From a virus (taxonomy: Duplodnaviria; Heunggongvirae; Uroviricota; Caudoviricetes), in IMG/VR virus record IMGVR_UViG_2534682222_000011: DNA of 13,754 bases; one strand, written 5' to 3'. This document shows, piece by piece, positions 1-13,754 of this stretch; within the stretch, counting starts at the first letter, position 1; each line of letters starts with the position of its first letter. The notes beneath the pieces were generated by a model, which was given only the letters and a program-made list of their open reading frames with translations, had not been told where the DNA came from and did not search any database. The translations under genes and the position numbers were made by a program.

Positions 1-192
1 AGATCTACTTTAGCAAGCCAAAATGTCACGAAGTTATCTGATGACATAACTTATCCTTGATAATTATTGTATGGATAGATTATCCAGAAATTTGCGAACT
101 GAGTCGGTCATTTTTTTTTTGTGTGCGCGTGATGTAATAAAGGTTCAGGAATATACTGTCAGTTTACTGAAAAACTGGCAACAGAGGCGGTT

Positions 193-420
193 ATGAGCGA
201 GAGTTACGAGTTCTCAGCAGGTTGTTTTTTGAAGCTATCAATATCTTCAGGGTATTTCACTATCAAAATTCAGGGAGATCTCCCCGCTCGTGCAGCTAGT
301 GCCATCTTGGCAGATGATGTCGAGCAGGTTTTATCTCAACTAGACAAATGTTTTCAGCTGAGTAATAGGCAACGAGAAGGGATCGTTAAGTATCTTATGT
401 CGAAGGGGATGCAGCCTTGA
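193..420 (+). CDS. hypothetical small protein (75 aa)
   Basis: ATG-initiated ORF; its TGA stop (418-420) overlaps the ATG (420-422) of the next ORF, suggesting translational coupling. No recognisable motif. Confidence 0.4.
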   Translation: MSESYEFSAGCFLKLSISSGYFTIKIQGDLPARAASAILADDVEQVLSQLDKCFQLSNRQREGIVKYLMSKGMQP

Positions 421-878
421 TGACTTGGATCACCCAAACAGATAACTGGACAGGGATCGCGGCGTGGGCGGGTTTTGCTTTGTCCGTATTTCAATTACTA
501 AAATCCAGAACATCGCTAAGGCTTTATCTCGGATGTGATCAGCACGAGGACAGGATATACGTTTCGAACATAAGCGCACACGATGTAACGTTGAGTGCAG
601 CCGGTGTGGTAACAGCCAGTGGACGCCTTAGAATGTTATCCGACGAATATTCGGACGAGAACATGATCACACCGATGCTGCCAAAAAGATTGAAAGCACG
701 AGACGAAATGGTCTTGAACGTGCCATTCATAAATAAGGCTCATCACAACAAAGTGCATCATCGTGGCGGGGTTTATATCAAAACATCTGACGGCAAGATG
801 TTCAGTGATGTTTGTTGGATCAAACGCCAATGGTGGTGGTTACTGTCTGTAATACTACGAGACACAAAGCGATACTAA
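420..878 (+). CDS. hypothetical membrane-anchored protein (152 aa)
   Basis: N-terminal hydrophobic stretch WTGIAAWAGFALSVFQLL fits a single TM helix or signal anchor. ATG at 420 preferred over the TTG at 417 used by the ORF track. Confidence 0.45.
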   Translation: MTWITQTDNWTGIAAWAGFALSVFQLLKSRTSLRLYLGCDQHEDRIYVSNISAHDVTLSAAGVVTASGRLRMLSDEYSDENMITPMLPKRLKARDEMVLNVPFINKAHHNKVHHRGGVYIKTSDGKMFSDVCWIKRQWWWLLSVILRDTKRY

Positions 879-968
879 GTTGATTGATAGTCCGAGGTGA
901 TGTTCTGCCCAGCGTAGTTGCTGGGTGATACACCTTCAATGATTCTTGTTAGTGTGTAGGGGGGGGGC

Positions 969-1187
969 ATGTTGGATTTTAAAGCTGAGTTTGTTGGCGG
1001 CAGCCATAGCGGCGAGGTTATATCACCGATGTCCGAGGTAGAACTTAATAAACTAGGGTATAGAGTCCATTTACGTGGTGCCCCCTCTGGCGATGAAATG
1101 CCTGTACACGTTGTTGTACCTATTGAATGGTCAGCGGATGAAGCACACAGAGCCATAATGCAGCGCTGGGGTAAACGCAGACGGTAG
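969..1187 (+). CDS. hypothetical protein (72 aa)
   Basis: ORF with balanced charged composition, directly preceded by a G9 homopolymer (959-967). The competing antisense ORF 875-1198 is S/T/P-rich low-complexity and judged less likely. Confidence 0.3.
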   Translation: MLDFKAEFVGGSHSGEVISPMSEVELNKLGYRVHLRGAPSGDEMPVHVVVPIEWSADEAHRAIMQRWGKRRR

Positions 1188-1904
1188 ATGTCGCGCATTT
1201 CTCTTAAACTGGCTGCTGTGTTTGGTGCTAATTATCCATGCAAAGTGGCCTAAGCTACGTGGAAGAATGATCAGTTTCGCATTATTTGGTTCAAGGAGGG
1301 CTCCCCCACAGCCTCACTCTCTGAATGCAAAACAGCCCCACAATCCCACTGTTAAAAGTCCCAGCTTGAAAATTGCACGCTTATGGTTGCCCCTCCCTCA
1401 ACTCTATAGCTCGCCCGCGCCCCCGTGTGCATGTGCGTGCCCGCGCGTCAGGGGTCGCTGAGAAACCCTAAGATTTTGCTCATCCGAGACAAGCATTACA
1501 GGAGCGTGCTACTGAGCGAGATGCTGGCTGATTGCTGTTGCTGAATAACCGTGTGGGACGAGTGCTGCGATCATCTGCCTTTCACTGTGTATCTGTACAT
1601 CCCTCTAAAACGATCTGTATCGCTCTGTGCTGCGTTCTGTGCTTCCAATGTGTGATTCAATGCCTTTGTGATTTCGAGATCGTGGCGGTGCCGTGCTGAT
1701 CTGCTGCGTGCGCTCTACGCTGTGTTCGCTGGATGTGCCGGGGAATGCTGCTGTGGGGCGGTGCCAGTCTCTTTCGGGTATACCTGATAAAGACATAGAC
1801 ACACTGTCTCATTTGACTATCTATAAAACTCTATTGACTACACATTATTGATGTGATCTCTTATAGGTCTTGCTGTGATATTTCATTGAGACTTAGGGGG
1901 AAGC

Positions 1905-2537
1905 ATGGCACACAATGCGCTTATCTATTGCCGCGCCAGTACATCAGAGCAACACGCAGACCGGGCGCTGGGCTTGCTGCGAGAGTTCGCCAGTGATCGG
2001 GGCTGGCCTGTACGGGCGGAGTACATCGAGAACGCCAGCGGTGCGAGGCTGGCGCGTCCTGAACTAATGCGCTTGCTGGATGATGCGCAGGCCGGAGAGG
2101 TCTTGCTTGTCGAGAGCATCGACAGGCTAAGCCGCCTTACGCAAAAGGAATGGGCGACACTGAAACAGAGGATTCAGGATAAGGGACTGGTGATCGTTGC
2201 CGTTGACCTGCCAACCTCATGGCAACTACTGAACGATACGGCGTCAGAGCTTACAGAGGGCATCCTGAGAGCTGTTAACGCAATGCTGATTGATATCCTC
2301 GCTACGATGGCACGAGTGGACTACGAGACACGCAGAGCACGCCAAGCGCAGGGCATCAAGCGTGCCAAAGCCGAGGGGAAATATAACGGGAAGTCTAAGG
2401 ATGAGAGCGCCCGTGAAACTGTCCGCGCTATGCTTACCGTTGGGAATAAACCAGAGCACATCATGAAAGCTGCCGGGATAAGCCGGGCAACGTTCTACCG
2501 TATCAAACGTGAGCTGTCCGCCAGCGTTACAGAGTGA
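1905..2537 (+). CDS. serine recombinase, resolvase/invertase family (210 aa)
   Basis: N-terminal catalytic motif LIYCRASTSEQ (Y-x-R-x-S-T-x-x-Q, presumed nucleophile Ser), SG...R...GEVLLVESIDRLSR core, and C-terminal helix-turn-helix (ISRATFYRIKRE), as in small serine recombinases. Purine-rich SD-like GGGGGAAG precedes the ATG. Confidence 0.9.
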   Translation: MAHNALIYCRASTSEQHADRALGLLREFASDRGWPVRAEYIENASGARLARPELMRLLDDAQAGEVLLVESIDRLSRLTQKEWATLKQRIQDKGLVIVAVDLPTSWQLLNDTASELTEGILRAVNAMLIDILATMARVDYETRRARQAQGIKRAKAEGKYNGKSKDESARETVRAMLTVGNKPEHIMKAAGISRATFYRIKRELSASVTE

Positions 2538-2953
2538 TGACCTACAGTCTGATGAGATGCCAGCACTGGCCGTTACTGGGCTGTGGGTGATGGATGGCCT
2601 ACAGCTTTTGTATTGATATCAGATATTTATGTTATGCCTAATCTCGTAATGGTATGATTTATAATGTATTTCCGTATTACTTGCGGCTCTTGATATGAAG
2701 AGATGGCGGGGCTTTAGCCGTGCCAGACGATGAGTATCAAGATCAGATTGTGAATGTGATTTATCACTGAACAATTCGAGGGATGGGGCAGGGGAAGGGA
2801 TCAAAGGCTGTGTTGTCCAATCACTCAGCTAGATTTGAAGCAGGGCAACACCTTCGTTTTACCTTTAAAGTTGCATTTAAAATACATGTACAGAAAAGGG
2901 TTCTTCCCTTTCATCCCTTCTCCTAATCAGTGTTATCGCTTTTCGCTCTACAC

Positions 2954-3023
2954 TGGCTGCGCTTCTCGCTATGCTCCAGCCCGCTCCATCGCCTTTGGCT
3001 CATTCCCGGCCTTCGCCCGCTGT
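2954..3023 (+). repeat. scrambled tRNA-Gly 3'-half-like fragments (possible decayed att scar / left junction)
   Basis: Contains GCTCTACA, CCCGCTCCA, ATTCCC and a 12-nt exact match CCTTCGCCCGCT to the tRNA-derived att at 13224-13251, same orientation but out of order. Confidence 0.3.
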
Positions 3024-3080
3024 GATGCTCGGCCCTCCACGCAACCGTGCTTGCCAGGCAGTCAACGCGGCGGGGATAGA

Positions 3081-3113
3081 GTAGTGGTACGGTACTATAT
3101 TGGGATATGGTAC
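3081..3113 (+). repeat. GGTAC direct repeats (candidate integrase arm-type sites)
   Basis: GGTAC at 3086-3090, 3091-3095 and 3109-3113. The reverse-complement motif ([C/G]TACC) is clustered at 13152-13182 next to the integrase start. Confidence 0.25.
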
Positions 3114-3288
3114 TCACAATGCCGCTTATAACCCCTTACATCCCAGCATCCCAACAAACCTACTGAAAGTTATCAGCAAATCATTCATCAAGTCAGACAG
3201 GGCAAGGCTTACAAAGGTGTTGATTAAAAAATAATCAAATTAGAGTTTCTACTGTGGCAAAACGAACACCACTCGCTTGTGCATACGT

Positions 3289-3354
3289 AGTGACCTACAT
3301 GAAAGTCACTACTAAAGAGGGACAGAACATTCAACGTCACTGCTGACATGAAAT
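3289..3354 (+). promoter_or_regulatory. operator-like repeats upstream of helicase gene
   Basis: Dyad AGTGAC-N10-GTCACT (3289-3310) and direct repeat ACATGAAA (3297-3304 and 3347-3354), in the non-coding leader 75-140 bp upstream of the 3428 start. Confidence 0.3.
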
Positions 3355-3427
3355 TCTCTCTACGGGCAGCTCGGCGCTGCCGTCCTGCGCCTCGTTCTAA
3401 ACTCACCTTAATTTTGGAGATTTCACC

Positions 3428-5272
3428 ATGCCAACGAACCTACGCCGTTTGCTTGCGCAGGCTGCCGACGCTGACCCGCTCAATACCGCAAACGCAGATG
3501 TACAGCAAATGGTCGCTGACGGGATTGTTATTCGGCGTTCCAAGATATGCCCGATAAAGCATAAACCCGTTAAGGCGGCATACAACACGAAGACCGAAGA
3601 GTTTTATTACAATGCTGATGGCTCCGCTATGACCCTGCGGGAATGGCGAGCGCTGCATGGTGTTCAACCGAAGAAGCAAAAACAGCGCTCTGACACGGGG
3701 TTGCGGCAAGTCATCCAGCCCGGTGACGCAATTCATTGCCGACGCGCTGAGATAGAAATGTGGCTCAACAAGAAGCCTGCTCGGTATGCTGACCCGCTGC
3801 CGCCTGATTTTCCCGGTGTTCGCGTAGATGATGCCGCATTGAAACCGCGCGAGCACGCCGTTTCGGCATCGACAACCGGGCAGAATGCTTTTCTCAAAGC
3901 CTGCCGCGAGTTCCTGATTTGTGATGAGAAGACTATACACCGCATCAACAGGGGCATGAATAAACTGGAAGCGATGCGCAATTCAGATTTCAAACGCTAC
4001 GGGGACTCAGCGGAGTTTCGTCAATTGTGGTGTGGAGAGTCGAAACCTACCGAGGATAAATTTAACAGTACAAATCATCATTGTGACCCAAACGGCTTGG
4101 CAGTGTCGCCGTCTGTGCCGTCACTGAATACAGCCTCTTATGAGTTTCGCCCGCTGGTTCGCTGTGACCGAAACGCACGCGTTAGCCTGTTGCCACCCGA
4201 TGGGCTGGAGTGGAGGCCGGGGCAGTTGTCTGTTGCTGATGCGATCTTCTCCCGTGGTAGTGATGTGCTGGCCGTTCTGCCTACGGGTTATGGCAAGACC
4301 GCCGCCTTCGCTTATCCATTGATTTATGAGTCCCGCGCTGGCGTTGGCCTGTCTGTAATCGTGGTTCCCACTAATACCCTAAAGCGCCAGATTCTCCGCC
4401 AGTTGCGGGATGCTGGCGTTCACGCTGTGGCATTCGGTGACAAGTTGCCGAGGCACCGCAACGCTCAACAACTCGCGGGGCTGGCTGCCGGGGCGTTCCG
4501 TGTTGCTGTCGTTTCACCTGAGCATCTTGTTCTGTCGAGTCAGGTCTTCGCGGCGCTGATGGCTTACGGCGTTGATCGTTTTATCATCGACGAAGCGCAC
4601 ACGGTTAAAGACTGGGATTTCCGACCCGCTTACGAGGCCATGCAGCACTCGCTACAACATGCCTTTCTTTCGGCTCAACGCTGCGTATTTACGGCTACGC
4701 TGCTACGCGAAAATGAGCGCAGTTTAATGGCGTCGCTTGGCTGCCGTGGTGATTACGTAACATTCCGTGCTGATGTTGCTCGCGAAAATATCCAGTTGAC
4801 GACAGTCAGACAGTGCCGCGAACGTTTCCGAGCGGCTATTGGTCTGGTCGAGGCTCTGCCGAAAGAAGAGAAGACGCTCATTCTCGTCAATGACCTTAAG
4901 ACGTTGCGGGCGTACCTGAAACTCTTAGGCGACCGGGCGCGCCCATATCACTCGAAGACGATGCACTTGAGTAACGAAGAACGCCACGCAAACGCTGAGT
5001 GGTTTGCCACTACGCCGGGCGCAATTCTGATTGCTACTAAAGCCTTCGGGCTGGGGGCTGATGTGCCAGACATTCGCAACGTCATCGTTACATATATTCC
5101 TGATGACCTGCCTGACCTCATTCAGATGATTGGACGAGCCGGGCGCGATGGTCAACCTGCCCGCGCGTTTCTGCTGTGGTCATCGCTGGCGCTGGATGCT
5201 GCGCCTGATGAGCTTGCTTACTTCTACCGCCCTGAAAACTGCAACTGGCAGTACATCGCTAAATACCTCTGA
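3428..5272 (+). CDS. SF2 DEAH-box helicase, RecQ-like core, with ~270-aa N-terminal extension (614 aa)
   Basis: Helicase motifs in order: LPTGYGKT (I/Walker A), VVPTNTL (Ia), IIDEAH (II), FTATL (III), LIATKAFGLGADV (V), QMIGRAGRDGQ (VI, RecQ-type). N-terminal part has an excisionase/AlpA-like winged-helix signature (TLREWRALHGV ... GDAIHCRRAEIEMWL). GGAG RBS 10 nt upstream of the ATG. Confidence 0.9.
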   Translation: MPTNLRRLLAQAADADPLNTANADVQQMVADGIVIRRSKICPIKHKPVKAAYNTKTEEFYYNADGSAMTLREWRALHGVQPKKQKQRSDTGLRQVIQPGDAIHCRRAEIEMWLNKKPARYADPLPPDFPGVRVDDAALKPREHAVSASTTGQNAFLKACREFLICDEKTIHRINRGMNKLEAMRNSDFKRYGDSAEFRQLWCGESKPTEDKFNSTNHHCDPNGLAVSPSVPSLNTASYEFRPLVRCDRNARVSLLPPDGLEWRPGQLSVADAIFSRGSDVLAVLPTGYGKTAAFAYPLIYESRAGVGLSVIVVPTNTLKRQILRQLRDAGVHAVAFGDKLPRHRNAQQLAGLAAGAFRVAVVSPEHLVLSSQVFAALMAYGVDRFIIDEAHTVKDWDFRPAYEAMQHSLQHAFLSAQRCVFTATLLRENERSLMASLGCRGDYVTFRADVARENIQLTTVRQCRERFRAAIGLVEALPKEEKTLILVNDLKTLRAYLKLLGDRARPYHSKTMHLSNEERHANAEWFATTPGAILIATKAFGLGADVPDIRNVIVTYIPDDLPDLIQMIGRAGRDGQPARAFLLWSSLALDAAPDELAYFYRPENCNWQYIAKYL

Positions 5273-5310
5273 GTCGAAAGGCTCCCCCTCATTCTCTGGA
5301 GTTAATCCAT

Positions 5311-5748
5311 ATGCCTGTTACCGAACATGCGCAGCGTCGTGCTACGCGTGCGGATGCGCTCGTCACCGCACAACTTGCCTTCGCCCTGAACGGATATTCC
5401 TTCGATGGGTTAGCTGAGCGCCACCGCCAGACTCTTAATCGTGCGGCCATCTTGCGCCAAGCTGGTACGCCGCTACAGCGGTATTGCCTGCTCAATCACT
5501 GTGAGCCTTGGGAATGTCTGGCCGCTGTGCTGAATAGATTCCGACGCCGGGAGGATGGCGCTCGTCTTTGGCCGACCTATCGCATGGCTCGTGAGGTCTT
5601 TAATGGGACTGTTCACCCTGCCAACAAGACGCGCGACGAGATATTTCAATCTGTGCAGCGTCGCCTCTTTTTACCAAAACCAGTACACGCCGAAGTAATC
5701 CAGTACCTGCGCGTAATGGGGCTGACAGGAGTTAATCCGCATGACTAA
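5311..5748 (+). CDS. hypothetical protein (145 aa)
   Basis: ORF with GGAG RBS about 10 nt upstream; first in a chain of overlapping, translationally coupled ORFs. Confidence 0.6.
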   Translation: MPVTEHAQRRATRADALVTAQLAFALNGYSFDGLAERHRQTLNRAAILRQAGTPLQRYCLLNHCEPWECLAAVLNRFRRREDGARLWPTYRMAREVFNGTVHPANKTRDEIFQSVQRRLFLPKPVHAEVIQYLRVMGLTGVNPHD

Positions 5749-5947
5749 AACCGAGTTTGAAAATGAAACGTGGCGAATGAAAGGCTTGCTTCTTGGGGCG
5801 CTAATCCGCCGCCTTGAGGAAGACAAGGCTGGTGAGTCGCGCATGGCCGCAGCGGAGTTATCCAGTGCGGTCAACTTCCTTAAGGCCAATGCCGTAGAAG
5901 CGCCGGACACGTCATTTAACCGTGTATTTGAGGATGACGAGCAATGA
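5741..5947 (+). CDS. hypothetical protein (68 aa)
   Basis: Start overlaps the end of the upstream ORF by 8 nt; GGAG RBS with the same spacing as the upstream gene; acidic C-terminus. Confidence 0.5.
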   Translation: MTKTEFENETWRMKGLLLGALIRRLEEDKAGESRMAAAELSSAVNFLKANAVEAPDTSFNRVFEDDEQ

Positions 5948-6120
5948 CACCCGCAGAGTTTAGAGCATGGTTTGCAACCCTGCCGCCGAACTATCAGAGC
6001 GCAGCACGAGCCATGTATGAAAGCGCCCGCAAGACGGGAACACACACCGCTTCCAGCCTGCTACTCATTCGCACGCTGATTGAAGATCAAATCAATTTCG
6101 ATGGAGACTTTACCTTATGA
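5944..6120 (+). CDS. hypothetical protein (58 aa), not in supplied ORF track
   Basis: Hand-translated: ATG at 5944 overlaps the upstream TGA (ATGA); uninterrupted to TGA at 6118-6120, which overlaps the next ATG at 6117 (ATGA). Fits the coupled-operon pattern. Confidence 0.4.
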   Translation: MTPAEFRAWFATLPPNYQSAARAMYESARKTGTHTASSLLLIRTLIEDQINFDGDFTL

Positions 6121-6680
6121 CAGTTCTGAGCCTGACCGATATCCAGCGCATCAATACCCTCGTTAAGCGCGACCTTCGCAATGTGGAAGAGGTAGTCGCT
6201 GCAACCGGATTTGACCCGGAGGACGTTGACGCGGTGCTGCGCGGCGTTTATGTAGCCGACCTTGCCAACCAGTGGAGGGATGAAGCCGCTATTACGCTGG
6301 AGGAATACAACGCCATCCGTAAGCGCTGGAAACCGGGGCGCGGCCACTGGGACACTGCACATGCCATTGCACGCGATTTTCTAATTCGGCCTGAAACTGT
6401 GCTGGCTATCGTCCATTCCCGCTTTAGCAACGCCCACACCCACCCGATGCCGAAAGCAGTTAAAGCAAAGCCTGAGAAACCGCAGACGATGCGCCGCCTG
6501 TTGAGCGCCGACCTCGATCAGATGCACAAGCTGGAGCGCTTCGGCTGGAAACAAACCGAGATCGCTGGGGAGCTTGGGATCTCTGCTGAGGCTGTTGCTC
6601 ATGTCCTGCGCCTGATGCGTAGCAAGTGGTCTTATCCAGATATTTTGGAAGACGTTAACACGCGATTCGGGGCTAAGTGA
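6117..6680 (+). CDS. hypothetical DNA-binding protein with C-terminal HTH (187 aa)
   Basis: C-terminal segment WKQTEIAGELGISAEAVAHVLRLM resembles a helix-turn-helix; start overlaps upstream stop. Confidence 0.65.
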   Translation: MTVLSLTDIQRINTLVKRDLRNVEEVVAATGFDPEDVDAVLRGVYVADLANQWRDEAAITLEEYNAIRKRWKPGRGHWDTAHAIARDFLIRPETVLAIVHSRFSNAHTHPMPKAVKAKPEKPQTMRRLLSADLDQMHKLERFGWKQTEIAGELGISAEAVAHVLRLMRSKWSYPDILEDVNTRFGAK

Positions 6681-6913
6681 TGGCAGAGAACGAACCGCTG
6701 CACCCTGCCGTTAACCCTGATCTCTATGTGAACCTTGACGAACAGCGCGAGGGATACGCCCCGTTTGAATCACGCGGCTGGGATGTGCTGACACAGAACC
6801 TGTCCGGGGAAGGGCGAACTGATCCCGGCCAAGCACCAAACCAGAATCCAAGGCAGCGACCGCGTGGCTCCGTTGGCGAGCGACGTTGGTTGCGTCGTCA
6901 TGGCCTTATCTAA
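6680..6913 (+). CDS. hypothetical protein (77 aa)
   Basis: ATG at 6680 overlaps the upstream TGA (TGATG); the ORF track's GTG at 6677 is less likely. Basic, Pro/Arg-rich C-terminus. Confidence 0.45.
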   Translation: MAENEPLHPAVNPDLYVNLDEQREGYAPFESRGWDVLTQNLSGEGRTDPGQAPNQNPRQRPRGSVGERRWLRRHGLI

Positions 6914-6927
6914 CTGAGGATTATTTC

Positions 6928-7167
6928 ATGAGCACCATTATTTTAATGGAGCCACGCCGCGCGGCTGATTGCGGGCAACAACTGAAATTCATTGCCGAAG
7001 CCTTGAATCTTCGTCAAATCGATTTGGCTCATGTGTACCAGATCGACAGACAAGATCTCGGCAAAGCGTACCACGGACAGAAGATGATTCCTGCCCGATG
7101 CGTACACGCGCACATGCTTTTACTTGAACTGGCACATCGCCGAGTTACATCACAAGAGGTTGCATAA
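6928..7167 (+). CDS. hypothetical protein (79 aa), possible small HTH regulator
   Basis: ATG at 6928 with GAGGA RBS 7 nt upstream, preferred over the TTG at 6886. Segment LNLRQIDLAHVYQIDRQDLGK is HTH-like. Confidence 0.45.
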   Translation: MSTIILMEPRRAADCGQQLKFIAEALNLRQIDLAHVYQIDRQDLGKAYHGQKMIPARCVHAHMLLLELAHRRVTSQEVA

Positions 7168-7169
7168 TC

Positions 7170-7856
7170 ATGGCTGACCAGAATGTTAATCCGTACCTTT
7201 CGGGCGCTGATACTGCGCCGCAGCAATCGCCGTACATGGCCGCACCTGTAGGCGCTGACAACGGCGCTAGCAGATTCGACCAGACAACACCTGATGCTGA
7301 TTTCCTGAAAACGCAGCCAGCGAACATTAATCAAAGCTGGAACGAAAGTAACTTTGCCAACCAGCAAGACCAGCAGATTGATGTTGCTGCGCAAGTGGGC
7401 GACACGCTGCAATTACAGGATGGCACTACTGTTGAGTTGACTCCTGAACTTCATGGGCTGATGGGGCAGTTTCACCAGTCTGTCGAAAGCCAGCTAGGGC
7501 AGGGGACAGTTGACGCGATGTTGCAGTACGCTGGCACGCTCGACGCCGGGACGCAATCAACCCTTGAACGGATGGTTATGTCTGGCGACCCTGCGCAGAT
7601 GCAGCGGGCGGTTCATTATCTGCAAGAGCGTATGGTCGCAGGCACTGCGACTGGTTATGTCCCATCACAGGGGAACCCATACGGCCAGCCTGCCTCGCAA
7701 CCTGTTGGTATGTCTCATGCTGAGTTTATTGCAGCGTATGATCAGCTTTCGCAGTGGGCGCAGCAATCAGGGTATGGCCCCGGCCATCGCCAGTACGACG
7801 ATCAATACCGCGCTCTGGTTGCGCAGCGCTCCGCTGGCAAACGCGCTGGCCGTTAA
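7170..7856 (+). CDS. hypothetical Gln/Ala-rich acidic protein (228 aa)
   Basis: AAGAGG RBS 10 nt upstream of ATG. Q-rich, acidic, low-complexity composition of the kind seen in scaffold or decoration-type proteins, but no diagnostic motif. Confidence 0.65.
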   Translation: MADQNVNPYLSGADTAPQQSPYMAAPVGADNGASRFDQTTPDADFLKTQPANINQSWNESNFANQQDQQIDVAAQVGDTLQLQDGTTVELTPELHGLMGQFHQSVESQLGQGTVDAMLQYAGTLDAGTQSTLERMVMSGDPAQMQRAVHYLQERMVAGTATGYVPSQGNPYGQPASQPVGMSHAEFIAAYDQLSQWAQQSGYGPGHRQYDDQYRALVAQRSAGKRAGR

Positions 7857-7916
7857 GCAATCGCCTGTCCTGTCTTCCCCACGTCTTAACCTTACGTTTT
7901 AGAGCCTGAATCGCGT

Positions 7917-7936
7917 TGTACATCGCCAGATGTACA
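7917..7936. promoter_or_regulatory. TGTACA-N8-TGTACA palindromic repeat pair (candidate activator/operator site)
   Basis: TGTACATCGCCAGATGTACA lies in the 160-bp intergenic gap between the 228-aa and 115-aa genes. Confidence 0.3.
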
Positions 7937-8015
7937 TTCGTATACCTGCACCTGTAAAACGCGAAATTACCTCTCAAACACCACACATAAACCCACTTTG
8001 CATTGAGATCTGACA

Positions 8016-8363
8016 ATGACCTTACTGACACCTGAAAACGTGGCAGCGGCTAGGGCTGCCCGTAGCGCGAGGATTGAACACTGGAAAGCCAACGCCAGCC
8101 AGCTTAAGCAGGACTTTGCTGACGAAGCGCACTGGCGGCGGCTCGCCTCACGCTTCGGCGTGCGTATGCCCTCGGCGTATGTTCCCGGCTCCGAGCTGCG
8201 ATTGCTGCGCCGGGCGGCCAAACGCGCGGGCATCTCTGGTGCTGATATGCGCGATGCTTTTGGTGGGGGCGTTGCGCACCTGCACGAGCTTAATCCCCAT
8301 TGGCCTGCCTTCGCGCTTATCGGCCTGATTCTTGAGATCGCGGCTGAAAAAGCTGCTGCCTGA
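8016..8363 (+). CDS. hypothetical protein (115 aa)
   Basis: ORF after an intergenic gap; Ala/Arg-rich; weak RBS. No recognisable motif. Confidence 0.55.
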   Translation: MTLLTPENVAAARAARSARIEHWKANASQLKQDFADEAHWRRLASRFGVRMPSAYVPGSELRLLRRAAKRAGISGADMRDAFGGGVAHLHELNPHWPAFALIGLILEIAAEKAAA

Positions 8364-8431
8364 TTCATCCCATTCTCTTTTCCCCTTTTCCATAAATCGC
8401 GCTGGCTAACGCTGGCGCGGGAGCTATTTCT

Positions 8432-9427
8432 ATGACTGACAATGTTTATACCCCTGACCAATTCCGCCCGCACTGGGGCGGTGTAGATGCTGACAACGAC
8501 ATTCACATTGAAGCGTATGACCGGGACGTTCAGACCCGCCTTGAGGCAAAGAGCGTGTTTCTCGCCGAGGGGCTGAGCACATACAAGCCGCTGAAAAACA
8601 GTAATCAGTATCGTGTAGACCGCCTGAGCGGAGATCTGGAGGTGAAGGGCAGAACCGCAGGGCAATCGCTGGAGCCTACCGCCGTTAAGTCGGACAAGCT
8701 GATTATCTCTGTGGATACGCTGAGCTATATCCGCATCCCGATTGACTATCAAGACGACTGGACAGCGCCCACCTTTCGCGCAGAGCTGAGCCGCAACATG
8801 GGGACAGCCCATGCAAAGTTCTACGACGAAGCGCACACTATCCAGCTAATCAAAGCGACTGACTTTGTACCGCCGCCTACGTTGCAACCAACGTTTAACC
8901 CGCTGACGGATAATGTTGTCTCGCTCGACCTGACAACGGGGAGCGAAGAGGATGCGGCTAACGAACTGGTTCACGCTATTAAAGCTGCTGTTAATCGATT
9001 CCTAACTGAAAAAGATATTCCGGTGGCGGAGCTGTGCCTTCTCATCGACCCAGCTTGGTTCAGCATCCTGATGGAACATAAGAAGTTGATGAACGTCCGT
9101 TACAGCCGGGATAGTGGCAATGATTACGCATGGCGTCGCGTTGGCTATGTCGCTGGGGTGCGAGTTATTGAGCTGAACAGTTACCCGCAGGAAGCCATTA
9201 CCGCGCATGAACTGGGCGCTGATTATGATGTGACCGCAGGGGAAGCGCTGACACGGGCGACGCTGTTCCGGCCTGCGTCTGTACTTGTGACAGTCGAAGC
9301 GCAGAGCGTTATCAATCGCCAGTGGGATGATGAACGCGAAATGACAATGGTGATGGACTCATATCGCCTGTTCAATGTTGGGCTGCGCCGCCCTGACTGC
9401 GTTATAAATTTCCGACAAGCTGCATAA
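8432..9427 (+). CDS. hypothetical protein (331 aa), possibly structural/morphogenetic
   Basis: GGGAG RBS 8 nt upstream of ATG. Largest protein of the late-region-like block; no catalytic motif seen; role inferred from context only. Confidence 0.7.
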   Translation: MTDNVYTPDQFRPHWGGVDADNDIHIEAYDRDVQTRLEAKSVFLAEGLSTYKPLKNSNQYRVDRLSGDLEVKGRTAGQSLEPTAVKSDKLIISVDTLSYIRIPIDYQDDWTAPTFRAELSRNMGTAHAKFYDEAHTIQLIKATDFVPPPTLQPTFNPLTDNVVSLDLTTGSEEDAANELVHAIKAAVNRFLTEKDIPVAELCLLIDPAWFSILMEHKKLMNVRYSRDSGNDYAWRRVGYVAGVRVIELNSYPQEAITAHELGADYDVTAGEALTRATLFRPASVLVTVEAQSVINRQWDDEREMTMVMDSYRLFNVGLRRPDCVINFRQAA

Positions 9428-9443
9428 CAAAAGGGGCCGAGCC

Positions 9444-9971
9444 ATGAATATTGATGCTTATGCCCCGGAGCTGTTGCGCTCTTTGTTTCGGTACGATGCG
9501 AAGACTGGCCGCCTGTTCCATGCAGTAGACCGGATCGGAGCCAACAAGCGGATTTACGCTAAAGCCGGGGAACTGGCCGACACGGTAACGGACAGCGCCG
9601 GATATAGGCGCGTATCTGTCCGCATCAATGGCAAATCTCATGCGCTATACGCCCACCGTGTCGCCTTCATCATTGCTAATGACGGTATCCCTGCCGGGAT
9701 GCAAATCGACCATATCAACGCGGTACGCGATGACAACCGCCTTATCAATCTCCGCACGGTTACGCCACAAGAGAACCAGCACAATTACCGCAAAGCCAAG
9801 GGTTATAGCCACCATGCCTGCTCTGGCAGATGGGAGGCTTACATTCGCGTTGGTGGTGTTCGCCATCACCTCGGCTTATTCACTACCGAAGCGGCGGCGC
9901 GTGCTGCGTACCTGAAAGCTAAAGCCAGATACCATCCGTCAACGCCAGCCGATTTATTGCAGGCTGCCTAA
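9444..9971 (+). CDS. HNH endonuclease with C-terminal AP2-type DNA-binding domain (175 aa)
   Basis: HNH_3-like motif (YRRVSVRINGKSHALYAHRVAFIIANDGIPAGMQIDHINAVRDDNRLINLRTVTPQENQHN) followed by AP2-like GRWEAYIRVGGVRHHLGLFTTEAAARAAY. AAGGGG RBS upstream. Confidence 0.85.
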   Translation: MNIDAYAPELLRSLFRYDAKTGRLFHAVDRIGANKRIYAKAGELADTVTDSAGYRRVSVRINGKSHALYAHRVAFIIANDGIPAGMQIDHINAVRDDNRLINLRTVTPQENQHNYRKAKGYSHHACSGRWEAYIRVGGVRHHLGLFTTEAAARAAYLKAKARYHPSTPADLLQAA

Positions 9972-9989
9972 TCCTCGGAGGTTCCATTA

Positions 9990-10415
9990 ATGGCTGATGA
10001 AAAGCCGATTAGAGCGCTGGCAGATGATGACCCGCGCCGCCAGCGGTACGCTGAACTGTTGGCGCAGGCTGGCCGCATGACTATTCCACGGCTGCATCCG
10101 GGCGATGCTAACAGTGTTATGAGTCAGCTTGCGACAATGCTCGGAGCACCTGTCCCGATAGTAGGTGCTATGACTGAGCACGCCGCTGCATGGCGTGCCT
10201 GTCTTCTGGAGCAAGGGCTTGGTGATCTTCTGGATGGCTTGAGTAAGCAGGTGCTGACCATCTTCTTTCTGCTCTGCTGGAGAGACAGCGCCTTGCGATT
10301 GGCGGGTAAGCAAAAGGAACGGTTTGCAGCGGCCAGCGAGGGTTTGACCATTGAGCAATACCGGGCAATGCACCCGGCTTACAGAGAGGATAAAGAAAAT
10401 GATAACCACGATTAA
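9990..10415 (+). CDS. hypothetical protein (141 aa); position suggests a small-terminase-like or packaging-redirection protein
   Basis: Strong GGAGG RBS 8 nt upstream. Functional guess rests only on its place directly downstream of the HNH endonuclease. Confidence 0.6.
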   Translation: MADEKPIRALADDDPRRQRYAELLAQAGRMTIPRLHPGDANSVMSQLATMLGAPVPIVGAMTEHAAAWRACLLEQGLGDLLDGLSKQVLTIFFLLCWRDSALRLAGKQKERFAAASEGLTIEQYRAMHPAYREDKENDNHD

Positions 10416-10698
10416 ATTAAGGTGGCGGTACATCGAGCCGCCACCAATGACTGGCGCACTCGCTGACCTGAAACAGTGGGTAATGGATACCGGAGAGCCT
10501 GAGCTTGAAGCTAAATTTCGTAAGCTGCTGGGGCTGATGCGCCGCAATGGTATCAGTGACGAACGTGTTAATGCGATGGCCGCCGAGCTTTATGCTCTGG
10601 TATGCCAACGCCAGCGCGAAGAATACGAAGCCTGCAAACGGGCTGCATCTGACAGTGGAGGCTTTGAATCATGGTTACACGGACAGACCAACTACTAA
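10399..10698 (+). CDS. hypothetical protein (99 aa)
   Basis: ATG at 10399 preceded by GAGAGGA RBS and overlapping the upstream stop region; preferred over the in-frame ATG at 10351, which lies 65 nt inside the upstream gene. Confidence 0.55.
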   Translation: MITTIKLRWRYIEPPPMTGALADLKQWVMDTGEPELEAKFRKLLGLMRRNGISDERVNAMAAELYALVCQRQREEYEACKRAASDSGGFESWLHGQTNY

Positions 10699-11108
10699 GA
10701 AAAGCGATGCGAGGCTATCTGGAATATCTCGGCAACATGCCGCTAGCGGAACGCATTAAAAATTCTGCTGCGTTCGATGATGTGTATCACTTCCTGTTGA
10801 ATGGTTCAGGACGGCTGGAGTTGCGCCGCGCTGATGTGGCCGCTGTCCGTGTCTTCCTGTGGAATTATCAATACCGACGCTGCGCGGTGACAGCTAAGCC
10901 GCTACGCCTCGCGTCTGCTGTATTGGATCACTGTCACCGAACTGGACGTGTGCGCGCTGTGGTTCATCGTTCGGCCAATGCAGCGGAAGGTGGTTATTAT
11001 GTGGGAAATTTGTGCGGACTCTCACGAAGTAGCATGTTAAGCATGCTACCTGCCTACCGCCGACAATACAAGGGGTTGGGCGTTATTTATCCAAGACAAC
11101 ATGCGTGA
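10671..11108 (+). CDS. hypothetical protein (145 aa)
   Basis: GGAGG RBS 9 nt upstream of ATG; overlaps upstream ORF by 28 nt. Confidence 0.55.
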   Translation: MVTRTDQLLRKAMRGYLEYLGNMPLAERIKNSAAFDDVYHFLLNGSGRLELRRADVAAVRVFLWNYQYRRCAVTAKPLRLASAVLDHCHRTGRVRAVVHRSANAAEGGYYVGNLCGLSRSSMLSMLPAYRRQYKGLGVIYPRQHA

Positions 11109-11186
11109 TGAGATTATTTCTTTTATTTTCATTCGGTTATGTGTTGTTGTGGCTGCCTTGTTACTTGCCTATATTTAAAACAATTC

Positions 11187-11225
11187 TTGACGGATTGACG
11201 TAGATTGCGTAGGCTGAGCATAAAA
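11187..11225 (+). promoter_or_regulatory. putative sigma70-type promoter for the two-gene cassette
   Basis: Tandem TTGACG hexamers (11187-11192 and 11195-11200) with candidate -10 elements TAGGCT (17-bp spacer from the first) or CATAAA (18-bp spacer from the second), in an AT-rich intergenic region. Which pair is used is unresolved. Confidence 0.35.
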
Positions 11226-11309
11226 CAGTTTCCTAATATGTCTCCAAACTGAGCTTCAACTTGAGAATACTTCGTTCCTACATCTCCCTTGAAGGGGTAG
11301 GAGGATAAT

Positions 11310-11519
11310 ATGAACTTTGATATGCGTACAAACCAAAATTGTGCATCGTTTTTTAACCCAGCAACCAAGGCGTTTGTCGTCGTTGATTCGTTTGACAACT
11401 ACGAATTCGATGTGCGTGCTGGTACTTTATCACGCACTGAATTTGTAGGCACCATCACAGCTTCAAACGATGAAGAGTTGAACAAGAAATTAGCTGAGAT
11501 CACGGCTGCACACATATGA
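11310..11519 (+). CDS. hypothetical small protein (69 aa), cassette gene A
   Basis: Very strong RBS (AGGAGG, 5-nt spacer); AT-rich codon usage unlike the upstream block; stop overlaps next start (ATGA). Confidence 0.6.
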   Translation: MNFDMRTNQNCASFFNPATKAFVVVDSFDNYEFDVRAGTLSRTEFVGTITASNDEELNKKLAEITAAHI

Positions 11520-11890
11520 TAACTCAACAGCAGATTGATGATTTAGTTGCAGATATTAACGATATCTTGGAAGAAGATAGAGCCAAGCTAAAGATGTCAT
11601 TTCATTTTGCTGTTGATAGACTTAATGATCCGCGTAATAAACCTCCAATCACGTTAGCTGAGTTGAGAGTGATTTTTACAAATTTCATTGGACAACACTT
11701 GCAGACAATTCTAGGCAAAGATGAGGGATTTTCCTTCACTATCAAGTGTCAGAAATCTGGTATTGCTATACCGTGCGCTATAGAGCATGAACTTGATATC
11801 GGTGCAAAGTGGGTAGTTCAGCAAGTGATCACCATCATGCGGAATCCGCAGTTTAACGCGTATCATGGTGATGTCATCTTTGATGTTTAA
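11516..11890 (+). CDS. hypothetical protein (124 aa), cassette gene B
   Basis: Translationally coupled to gene A; followed by a canonical intrinsic terminator. Confidence 0.65.
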   Translation: MITQQQIDDLVADINDILEEDRAKLKMSFHFAVDRLNDPRNKPPITLAELRVIFTNFIGQHLQTILGKDEGFSFTIKCQKSGIAIPCAIEHELDIGAKWVVQQVITIMRNPQFNAYHGDVIFDV

Positions 11891-11893
11891 AAG

Positions 11894-11916
11894 AAAGGCG
11901 CTATAGCGCCTTTTTT
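11894..11916. terminator. rho-independent terminator, plausibly bidirectional
   Basis: Hairpin AAAGGCGC-TATA-GCGCCTTT followed by a T6 run on the plus strand; the complement reads hairpin plus TTTCTTTT. Abuts the integrase stop codon. Confidence 0.7.
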
Positions 11917-13135
11917 ATAAACACGGATAACTGACCAACTCCACATACTCCCATAGTTCTTTCATCCCTGCTCCCTTGCTATATGTCCTGAAAGCTTCCG
12001 TTTTAGCTTTTTGTTCGGTATGCCCGGTTATTGCCCCTATGCGCTGTTCTGGTACTCCTGCTCTGTCTAAGCAAGTAATAAAGTGACCACGCAGGGAGTG
12101 GAAGCATTGGCGATCTGTAGCCGCTGACAGCACGCGACGGCGTAGCCGTGTAAATGCCTGCGAGTACCACGGGCCACGCTTACCGTCGGCACGTTTAATC
12201 TTGTTCGATTGGGGGAGCAGGTATTCACCGTTGTTCTGCGCAAGGTATTTATCAACGATGCTGATTAACAGCGAGTGTATGGGGACGTGCCTTACACCCG
12301 CTTTAGTTTTAGATTTGCTGACGTAGAAGCAGCGTACCCCTTCAACTTTGATAATCTCAACTCGTTTGATGCTGGCGATTTCGTCGAGACGCATACCGGA
12401 ATACAAACCGATTATGATTACGTCTCGTATCTCGCTACCTGCCTCTTTTATTAATGCCTGTAGCTGGTGTAGTTCAAAAGGTTGATAACTTTCGTTCGTC
12501 TGGCGGGCTTCCAGATTGTGGCCGTGAAAGGGATTATCAGGGGCGATATTGTCATATTTACGCCGGGCGAAGTCATACAGCGTCCCTAAGCAGGTTAACC
12601 AGTTTTGCAGCGTCTGGCGGGAAAACTTATCTTGGTTCGCTTCCAGAAAGTCAGAGACGAGCCGCCGCCCGATTCCATTTATTGTAATGGTTGGGCGTTT
12701 TATTGAATTAGTAAATGCCGATACAGCGCGAACTGATTTACTCAGCGTGGAATAAGAGCGCCGATCTTTGTATTGCTCTGCATATTCTTTACTGACATCT
12801 GTCAATTTTGGTGATGCTGGTTTTCCCCGCTCTGCTGGAATAGTTGCGGGTGTGGTAATGCTGCTGGATACCCCCGCCAGCAAGTGAAGATCTGTTACAG
12901 CGGAATGAATCCGGGTAATGGGGTTATCCGGTTTCATCATGAGCTGTAGCTTACGGAACTCTAATAAATATTGGTCACGGAAAATGCGAGCTTGCATGAT
13001 GTCCCGTGTGCCTGTCGATTTCTTGAGCGAGCGCCGCCCGTTCCAGAGGTGGCGCATGTAGACCGGAATATAGATTTGAAAGATGAATATCCCATCTTTG
13101 TTTGCATAAAGATAAGAAGTCTTCTTGATTGGCAT
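11915..13135 (-). CDS. int: tyrosine site-specific integrase (406 aa)
   Basis: C-terminal catalytic region with HSLRGHF (box II-like) and a downstream Tyr (RTYSKG). ATG at 13135 with AAGG RBS preferred over the TTG at 13165 used by the ORF track. Adjacent to the tRNA-derived att. Confidence 0.9.
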   Translation of the reverse strand: MPIKKTSYLYANKDGIFIFQIYIPVYMRHLWNGRRSLKKSTGTRDIMQARIFRDQYLLEFRKLQLMMKPDNPITRIHSAVTDLHLLAGVSSSITTPATIPAERGKPASPKLTDVSKEYAEQYKDRRSYSTLSKSVRAVSAFTNSIKRPTITINGIGRRLVSDFLEANQDKFSRQTLQNWLTCLGTLYDFARRKYDNIAPDNPFHGHNLEARQTNESYQPFELHQLQALIKEAGSEIRDVIIIGLYSGMRLDEIASIKRVEIIKVEGVRCFYVSKSKTKAGVRHVPIHSLLISIVDKYLAQNNGEYLLPQSNKIKRADGKRGPWYSQAFTRLRRRVLSAATDRQCFHSLRGHFITCLDRAGVPEQRIGAITGHTEQKAKTEAFRTYSKGAGMKELWEYVELVSYPCL

Positions 13136-13151
13136 GGTAATTACCTTGTAA

Positions 13152-13182
13152 TCTACCGCTACCAACTACCGGGATAAGTACC
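13152..13182 (-). repeat. clustered (C/G)TACC(G/A) repeats between int start and att (candidate arm-type sites)
   Basis: CTACCG, CTACCA, CTACCG and GTACCG within 31 bp; mirror the GGTAC repeats at 3086-3113. Confidence 0.3.
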
Positions 13183-13223
13183 GCGATTACTTATTTTGGT
13201 TCACAATTCATAGGGTTAGCAAA

Positions 13224-13251
13224 GAGGGTTCGATTCCCTTCGCCCGCTCCA
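13224..13251 (+). repeat. att site: 3' terminal 28 nt of a tRNA-Gly gene (T-arm, acceptor 3' strand, CCA)
   Basis: GAGGGTTCGATTCCCTTCGCCCGCTCCA has a T-stem/loop (GAGGG-TTCGATT-CCCTT), 7-nt acceptor strand CGCCCGC, discriminator T and CCA. It matches the 3' end of E. coli glyU as I recall it. No 5' half is present upstream. Confidence 0.7.
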
Positions 13252-13484
13252 ATTTATCTTCACCTCATCAATCTGCCATTTTTGCTGTATCTGATTTTCT
13301 ATATTATCTTAATTCAATCGCTTCAGACTTTTCGCAATCGCCGTAATATTTCCCCATTTTGTTGTAAATAAAAAGCGTTTACGCAATGCAATCCTTTTGT
13401 AACAACCCAGGTAAAACACCTTATTTTCAAGTTGTTAAATAAGTGGTTATCTACGCTTTTAACAAACGATTGATGGAATATTTT

Positions 13485-13634
13485 ATGAAAGGGAAATCTG
13501 CATTAACTCTTCTGCTCGCTGGTATATTTTCGTGCGGCACATGCCAGGCGACAGGGGCAGAAGTGACGAGTGAATCTGTATTTAACATTCTTAATTCCAC
13601 GGGGCAGCAACAGATAAAAGTTATTTATCGTTAA
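13485..13634 (+). CDS. small secreted protein/lipoprotein-like peptide (49 aa) in the chromosomal flank
   Basis: N-terminal signal-peptide-like MKGKSALTLLLAGIFSCGTCQA; lies outside the att site in AT-rich flank. Start at 13485 chosen over upstream in-frame ATGs. Confidence 0.4.
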   Translation: MKGKSALTLLLAGIFSCGTCQATGAEVTSESVFNILNSTGQQQIKVIYR

Positions 13635-13754
13635 ATCCAGATAAGTACCCTAATTATCGTCTTCTGATTCACTCAGCCAAATTAAAAAATGAAATAAAGA
13701 GCCACTATACCAAAGACGAAATTCAAGGGTTGTTAACATTAACAGAAAACACGG

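Follow-up and report, generated by a model that had tools for sequence, protein, structure and literature searches.

The window analyzed here, meaning the whole stretch of DNA examined, is 13,754 nucleotides long, and the segment under study (13136–13251) lies near its right end, between the start of an integrase gene and chromosomal DNA that follows the displaced 3′ end of a tRNA gene. The features around this junction are as follows.

1–13223, no strand assigned: island body, delimited from the copy in NZ_LR536431.1, collinear loci, and gene content; its leftmost 1163 nt lie outside the window
11915–13135, minus strand: tyrosine integrase gene (int), 406 aa, with its ATG at 13135, transcribed away from the core
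13136–13223, no strand assigned: int-proximal att arm, 88 bp, bounded by the int ATG and the core; its proximal 70 bp (13136–13205) form a conserved noncoding block
13153–13162, plus strand: candidate arm-type site R1, CTACCGCTAC, of the TACCGCGA family and conserved in an L001-type relative
13166–13175, plus strand: candidate arm-type site R2, CTACCGGGAT, with one mismatch to TACCGCGAT
13178–13187, plus strand: candidate arm-type site R3, GTACCGCGAT, with no mismatch to the consensus
13224–13251, plus strand: attR core, a 28-nt direct repeat comprising the T stem-loop, the 3′ acceptor strand, and CCA of the displaced tRNA end
13229–13241, plus strand: probable strand-exchange zone within the core, inferred (T-loop TTCGATT and 3′ T-stem)
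13252–13754, no strand assigned: chromosomal flank downstream of glyU, with the start of ygeQ (a GH15-like gene), on the glyU-proximal side of the ETT2 region

The 28-nt sequence on the plus strand at 13224–13251, GAGGGTTCGATTCCCTTCGCCCGCTCCA, occurs a single time in the whole window, and shuffles give an expectation of 0 matches even with 3 mismatches allowed, placing it far beyond chance. It is identical at all 28 positions to the end of E. coli glyU, a 74-nt tRNA-Gly(CCC) gene that reads GCGGGCGTAGTTCAATGGTAGAACGAGAGCTTCCCAAGCTCTATAC and then the 28 nt of GAGGGTTCGATTCCCTTCGCCCGCTCCA, and the intact copies in loci L002, L003, and L015 finish with these 28 nt too. To the left, the core is preceded by gcaaa in the window and by tatac in the tRNA gene; to the right, it is followed by atttat in the window, where the chromosome begins, and by gccctt at attL, where the island begins. 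Because the adjoining bases differ on both sides among attL, attR, and attB, the repeat is exactly 28 nt long. An earlier interpretation of this DNA made from its letters alone (the sequence-only reading) had described the segment as the last 28 nt of a tRNA-Gly lacking a 5′ half, that is, an att repeat and not a tRNA gene, from which the integrase reads away. Each of these points holds: the glyU match is exact, the 46 nt upstream of the core bear no resemblance to the 5′ part of a tRNA, a normal glyU 3′ end and flank run from 13224, and int extends on the minus strand from its ATG at 13135 to 11915. The opposite possibility, that the 28 nt belong to an intact tRNA gene, was checked with ARAGORN and Rfam over the whole window, and neither a 5′ half nor a tRNA call was found.

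We searched 5426 complete E. coli genomes for the empty site, and 5255 of them had a match to the right part of the window. Among the genomes listed, these matches start at window position 13224 (13221 in one genome) and show 99.4 to 100% identity. The chromosomal flank at 13252–13754 is 99.8 to 100% identical to the DNA that immediately follows intact glyU in E. coli strains lacking the island. In more than 5000 island-free E. coli genomes, the right part lies directly after intact glyU and runs into ygeQ, an arrangement that represents the empty site, and the break between island and chromosomal sequence in these genomes falls exactly at 13224; the two flanks are thus contiguous in the kind of island-free relative that the sequence-only reading had proposed for comparison. 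At the other end, loci L015, L016, L018, and L019 match window positions 2–4878 with 99.96 to 99.98% identity and carry an intact tRNA-Gly(CCC) on the same strand that ends 1163 nt to the left of window position 1, whereas L009–L014 match the window through its last base at an identity of at least 99.98%. Because L019 and L011 lie on one contig (GCA_045581885.1), both ends of the island are seen in one genome. The intact tRNA gene was expected to lie past the left edge of the window, with a 3′ end matching the fragment, and the collinear genomes bear this out, with intact glyU at attL agreeing at 28 of 28 positions.

The segment 13136–13251 is an attR junction, as shown by the displaced tRNA end, the adjoining intact int, the attL that matches it, and the empty site. 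Recombination rebuilt the tRNA gene at the left end (attL) and left the displaced original 3′ end at the right, followed by the old flank. From these comparisons, the right edge of this widespread island, which sits between glyU and the ETT2 region, falls exactly at 13223/13224, and its length, counted from where the left repeat ends to where the right one does, is 14,414 bp. The fuller reading, that this is the attR of a 14.4-kb int-bearing island in the 3′ end of glyU whose arm sites are bound by its own integrase, is in our judgment quite probable.

The junction resembles those of other islands and prophages integrated into tRNA genes at the T-loop, which likewise have a tyrosine integrase at one junction, the complete tRNA gene at one end with a fragment at the other, and a direct repeat that reproduces the 3′ end of that gene, starting at the T stem-loop and finishing with CCA. 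A preference for symmetric sublocations such as the T-loop has been described for integration into tRNA genes (bioRxiv 10.1101/2020.11.02.365908). Whereas the commoner layout has the tRNA gene followed by int in the same direction (PMC2951348), int here is found at the opposite end from the intact tRNA gene and diverges from the fragment, which is nothing unusual in principle. The glyU gene is known to adjoin the ETT2 type III secretion cluster, itself foreign DNA (PMC2808357; PMC4313913). ETT2, however, is fixed, lacks an integrase, and occurs in most strains, whereas the island described here is a separate, variably present, int-bearing insertion between glyU and ETT2. What is new are the exact boundaries of the island and the candidate arm sites; tRNA att repeats, the T-loop sublocation, and arm-type sites are already well known, and in other respects this is a textbook tRNA att junction that leaves the general picture unchanged.

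The body of the island (1–13223) resembles a phage satellite, though not one of any standard type, and encodes the following recognizable proteins in addition to the integrase.

1905–2537: resolvase
3428–5272: DEAD-box helicase
7170–7856: scaffold-like protein
8432–9427: major head protein, ≈57% identical to the capsids of 42-kb coliphages such as Lidtsur
9444–9971: HNH endonuclease
10671–11108: endonuclease VII-like protein

Neither a portal nor a large terminase was recognized in the island, and a search of the island DNA against 50,697 phage records gave no match. Window positions 4272–7171, which comprise part of the helicase gene and downstream ORFs, are absent from L012 and L018.

The integrase matches Pfam Phage_integrase (PF00589) over residues 223–375 with an E value of 5.6e-10, above the cut-off, and more weakly a SAM-like core-binding domain over residues 111–202. 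A further match to DUF6538 at residues 8–55 is weak (20.9 bits, below the curated cut-off of 27), and most homologs combine this family (PF20172) with PF00589. Among 30 homologs, R249, K274, H346, R349, and Y385 are invariant and H372 is nearly so, and, as judged from these catalytic residues, the protein is a tyrosine recombinase of the phage integrase family. The AlphaFold model has three parts with a disordered linker at residues 86–105, and residues 1–67 are predicted to form three strands and a long helix (pLDDT 86). In Foldseek, the model matches full-length λ Int best (structures 5j0n and 1z1b); λ Int has the same three-domain architecture, and its arm-binding domain resembles the N-terminal domain predicted here. 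The sequence identity to λ Int, however, is only 13 to 16%, and the N-terminal domain belongs with DUF6538 rather than with the λ Arm-DNA-bind family. We rejected assignment to the P4-like integrases, which have a DUF4102 (Arm-DNA-bind_3) N terminus, as no such Pfam match was obtained and the weak DUF6538 match stands in its place. P4-like (DUF4102) integrases are the commonest integrases of tRNA-linked islands. A literature search for DUF6538 found no published work. The exact integrase protein is recorded in 974 blocks of the assembly collection.

Between the integrase ATG and the core, the sequence-only reading had noted four (C/G)TACC(G/A) repeats within 31 bp as plausible arm-type sites. 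The four 6-mers are indeed present on the plus strand (CTACCG at 13153, CTACCA at 13159, CTACCG at 13166, and GTACCG at 13178), but taken alone they are within chance: in a window-wide test of the densest cluster, scored as some 4-mer reaching five copies within 45 bp, equal or larger clusters of 4-mers or 5-mers arose in ≈17% of dinucleotide shuffles, and for this reason we do not count the four 6-mers as evidence by themselves. The repeat unit turned out to be longer, giving three TACCGCGAT-like sites in this arm, and their interpretation as arm-type sites remains plausible.

We rebuilt attP from the 88-bp arm of the window and the first 200 bp after intact glyU, a stretch that is identical in L003, L015, L016, L018, and L019, and looked in it, with no motif set beforehand, for the family of similar words with the most members. 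The top family, TACCGCGA(T), has six 8-mer copies with at most one mismatch, all on one strand and three in each arm, and the 9-mer TACCGCGAT has five copies with at most one mismatch in the rebuilt arms. None of 300 shuffles of the arms reached 5 copies of an 8-mer or 4 copies of a 9-mer; the repeats are significant only with the other arm added and the longer consensus used. Repeated sites distinct from the core are therefore present on both sides of it, those of the other arm being taken from L003 and L015. The window copies start at 13154 (TACCGCTA), 13167 (TACCGGGAT), and 13179 (TACCGCGAT), 12 to 13 bp apart, and the other-arm copies lie at +56, +78, and +143 counted from the CCA of intact glyU (L003 4892, 4914, and 4979). 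The CTACCA at 13159–13164 overlaps the 3′ end of R1 and is probably incidental to that site. Elsewhere in the window, words with up to two mismatches to TACCGCGAT occur at ≈1.5 per kb per strand.

The copy at +143 sits inside a left-end block that is conserved in all integrase variants, and it may serve another purpose. This noncoding block, CGCTGGCGGTCGTTCCA...TACCGCGATAG..CAACA, occupies L003 4940–5010, ≈105 to 175 nt after the CCA of intact glyU, and is kept at the left end of 6 of the 6 islands compared despite their differing integrase N termini and int-proximal arms. The idea that it is a gene was rejected, as six-frame translation across five island types revealed no ORF that is open in all of them. 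A scan for the IHF consensus yielded a single hit, 20 nt inside the other arm and with one mismatch, which is too weak to use.

The int-proximal arm itself is strongly conserved in three loci, L004, L005, and L006, that were found without reference to the arm DNA. Positions 13136–13205 are identical at 70 of 70 sites in both L005 and L006 and at 69 of 70 in L004, whereas at the same loci int codons 1–100 agree at only 268 to 283 of 300 nucleotides and the 18 bp adjacent to the core at 14 to 17. The int coding DNA of relatives that keep the 70-bp block has diverged by 6 to 11%, and such conservation of noncoding DNA supports a function for the block.

Where relatives differ in the N-terminal domain, their arms differ as well, and every such arm has an NTAC(C/A) element of its own upstream of int. 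The arm of L007 reads caGGTACAGCC...GTACAAT, and GGTACAGCC recurs in the other arm of L007; a Klebsiella relative with an N terminus similar to that of L007 has caGGTACAGCG...GTACAAT; and the Enterobacter type carries CTACCA once in its int-proximal arm and twice in the other. The repeat-family test applied to the L001-type and L007-type arms was not significant. The L007 integrase (14871–16082) is a mosaic relative to that of the window (11915–13135), nearly identical in the catalytic half and divergent over the N-terminal ≈200 residues and the adjoining arm, which at the sequence level suggests exchange of a module made up of the N-terminal domain plus the arm. We tentatively propose that DUF6538 represents an uncharacterized class of arm-binding domain that recognizes TACCGCGAT-type sites and is swapped together with its arm. 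That such exchange takes place between islands sharing the catalytic half and the glyU core is a similarly speculative suggestion. If it does, a tandem stack of several related, satellite-like islands could form at a single tRNA gene with no cross-excision among them. Candidate sites are in any case now proposed for an integrase family with a DUF6538 N terminus.

A different reading accepts the junction as described and assigns the TACCG repeats to another protein, either an excisionase or directionality factor or a repressor of the int promoter. The first three copies are spaced 6 to 7 bp apart, resembling the blocks bound by the directionality factor at KplE1 attL (2-nt spacing), they lie directly upstream of the int start in the position of an operator, and strong conservation would suit any protein-binding function. 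Neither an excisionase-like nor a helix-turn-helix protein was recognized among the small ORFs, however, the former being sought with Pfam, PHROGs, and NCBIfam, and the 9-bp consensus recurs in the other arm, as expected of arm-type sites that flank a core. The integrase N-terminal domain is, moreover, predicted to have the right topology, and the arm motifs vary with its variants. On balance, we consider binding by another protein unlikely and retain the integrase as the candidate ligand of these sites.

Far less probable is a fossil site, an ancient insertion unable to excise and carrying a decaying integrase. Such a state does exist in NZ_LR536431.1, where a 100% identical copy of the island begins right after intact glyU and has lost its right end to IS1 at window position 13124, with attR and the integrase N terminus removed, and IS elements lie just past the end of the window in L009–L013. 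The window copy has perfectly matching 28-nt repeats and a full-length integrase that retains every catalytic residue, and nearly identical modules of integrase and arm are found beside differing flanks in several genera; the fossil state is thus true of the IS1-truncated copy and unlikely for that of the window. The deletion at IS1 in NZ_LR536431.1 takes in attR, the integrase start, and ETT2 up to yqeG, and the same island is also without ≈550 bp of the window (2491–3041). The sequence just past the last base of the window in L009–L013 contains a DDE transposase gene. The least credible reading, that the repeats have no function and that a short motif happens to cluster in AT-rich spacer DNA by chance, can draw on the nonsignificant window-wide test of the four 6-mers, but faces a block conserved at 69 to 70 of 70 positions beside coding DNA diverged by 6 to 11%, and six copies across both arms, a number that 0 of 300 shuffles attained.

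Integration would have proceeded from an island attP that itself contained the terminal 28 nt of the tRNA sequence. Strand exchange would take place at or just after the T-loop, within 13229–13241, with the catalytic and core-binding domains recognizing the two halves of the T-stem as inverted core-type sites. By analogy, the small domain at the integrase N terminus would bind three plus three TACCGCGAT-like sites in the same orientation in both arms, and bridging between arm and core could then give integration and excision their directionality, as in λ-type heterobivalent integrases. λ attP (P1, P2, and P′1–3) likewise has repeated noncore sites in both arms, but the target here is a tRNA gene and the sites are unrelated in sequence. 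In the λ map, the end of int faces the att site, whereas here its start does.

Because the candidate sites lie 17 to 52 nt upstream of the int ATG, arm binding probably also represses int, as in a characterized system. In KplE1 (CPS-53), integrated at argW in E. coli K-12, arm-type sites for IntS and sites for TorI lie between the tRNA att site and the start of int, where they overlap the int promoter and repress it in a negative autoregulatory loop, and the authors propose that most tRNA-linked integrase genes behave likewise (PMC2951348). By analogy, KplE1 provides the closest tested model for the probable role of the 88-bp arm. The two differ in that KplE1 int adjoins the intact tRNA gene (attL) whereas the int described here is at attR, in that the integrases belong to different families, and in that here no directionality factor was recognized and no promoter predicted. 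A promoter and terminator scan of 12900–13500 returned nothing, including any σ70-like promoter between the core and int, and manual reading of the minus strand gave no convincing −35/−10 pair. Because no promoter is predicted, the autoregulation step stays an analogy.

The same type of integrase (≈90 to 92% protein identity), together with the 88-bp arm and the core, is found beside different flanks in other hosts, namely Enterobacter bugandensis (L005), Rosenbergiella (L004), and four metagenome contigs. Because integrase, arm, and core abut different flanks, also in tandem arrays, we conclude that the element moves. In the tandem arrays at glyU (L004, L006, L008, and L028), islands are joined right end to left end; these are different int-bearing islands separated solely by a copy of the tRNA-end repeat (L004 511–538; L006 2119–2146 and 16678–16705; L008 3950–3971; L028). 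In L006, a satellite-like island is flanked on both sides by the same unrelated island. The tandem junctions (L004 and L028) do not prove a circle. A circular attP would read ...TTAGCAAA-28 nt-GCCCTTTAAAAGCC, and a search of IMG/VR for this attP or circular junction gave no match.

Related islands at glyU have repeats of 22, 23, 30, and 51 nt, all of which span the T-loop to CCA, and for this reason strand exchange is placed inside 13229–13251. A scan of metagenomes recovered six attR or tandem junctions and no attL. Two of the metagenome attR copies (L025 and L027), which have unrelated flanks, carry G13242A on the host side and probably come from hosts whose glyU differs at this position; the substitution suggests that exchange occurs to the left of 13242, at the T-loop or in the 3′ T-stem. 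With no attL among these junctions, G13242A gives a lead on the crossover point rather than a firm position.

Downstream of the junction, the ORF at 13443–13634 reaches a stop after 63 codons and corresponds to the start of ygeQ (GH15-like). Strain 2013C-4974 has an identical flank, with this gene annotated there as a frameshifted pseudogene.
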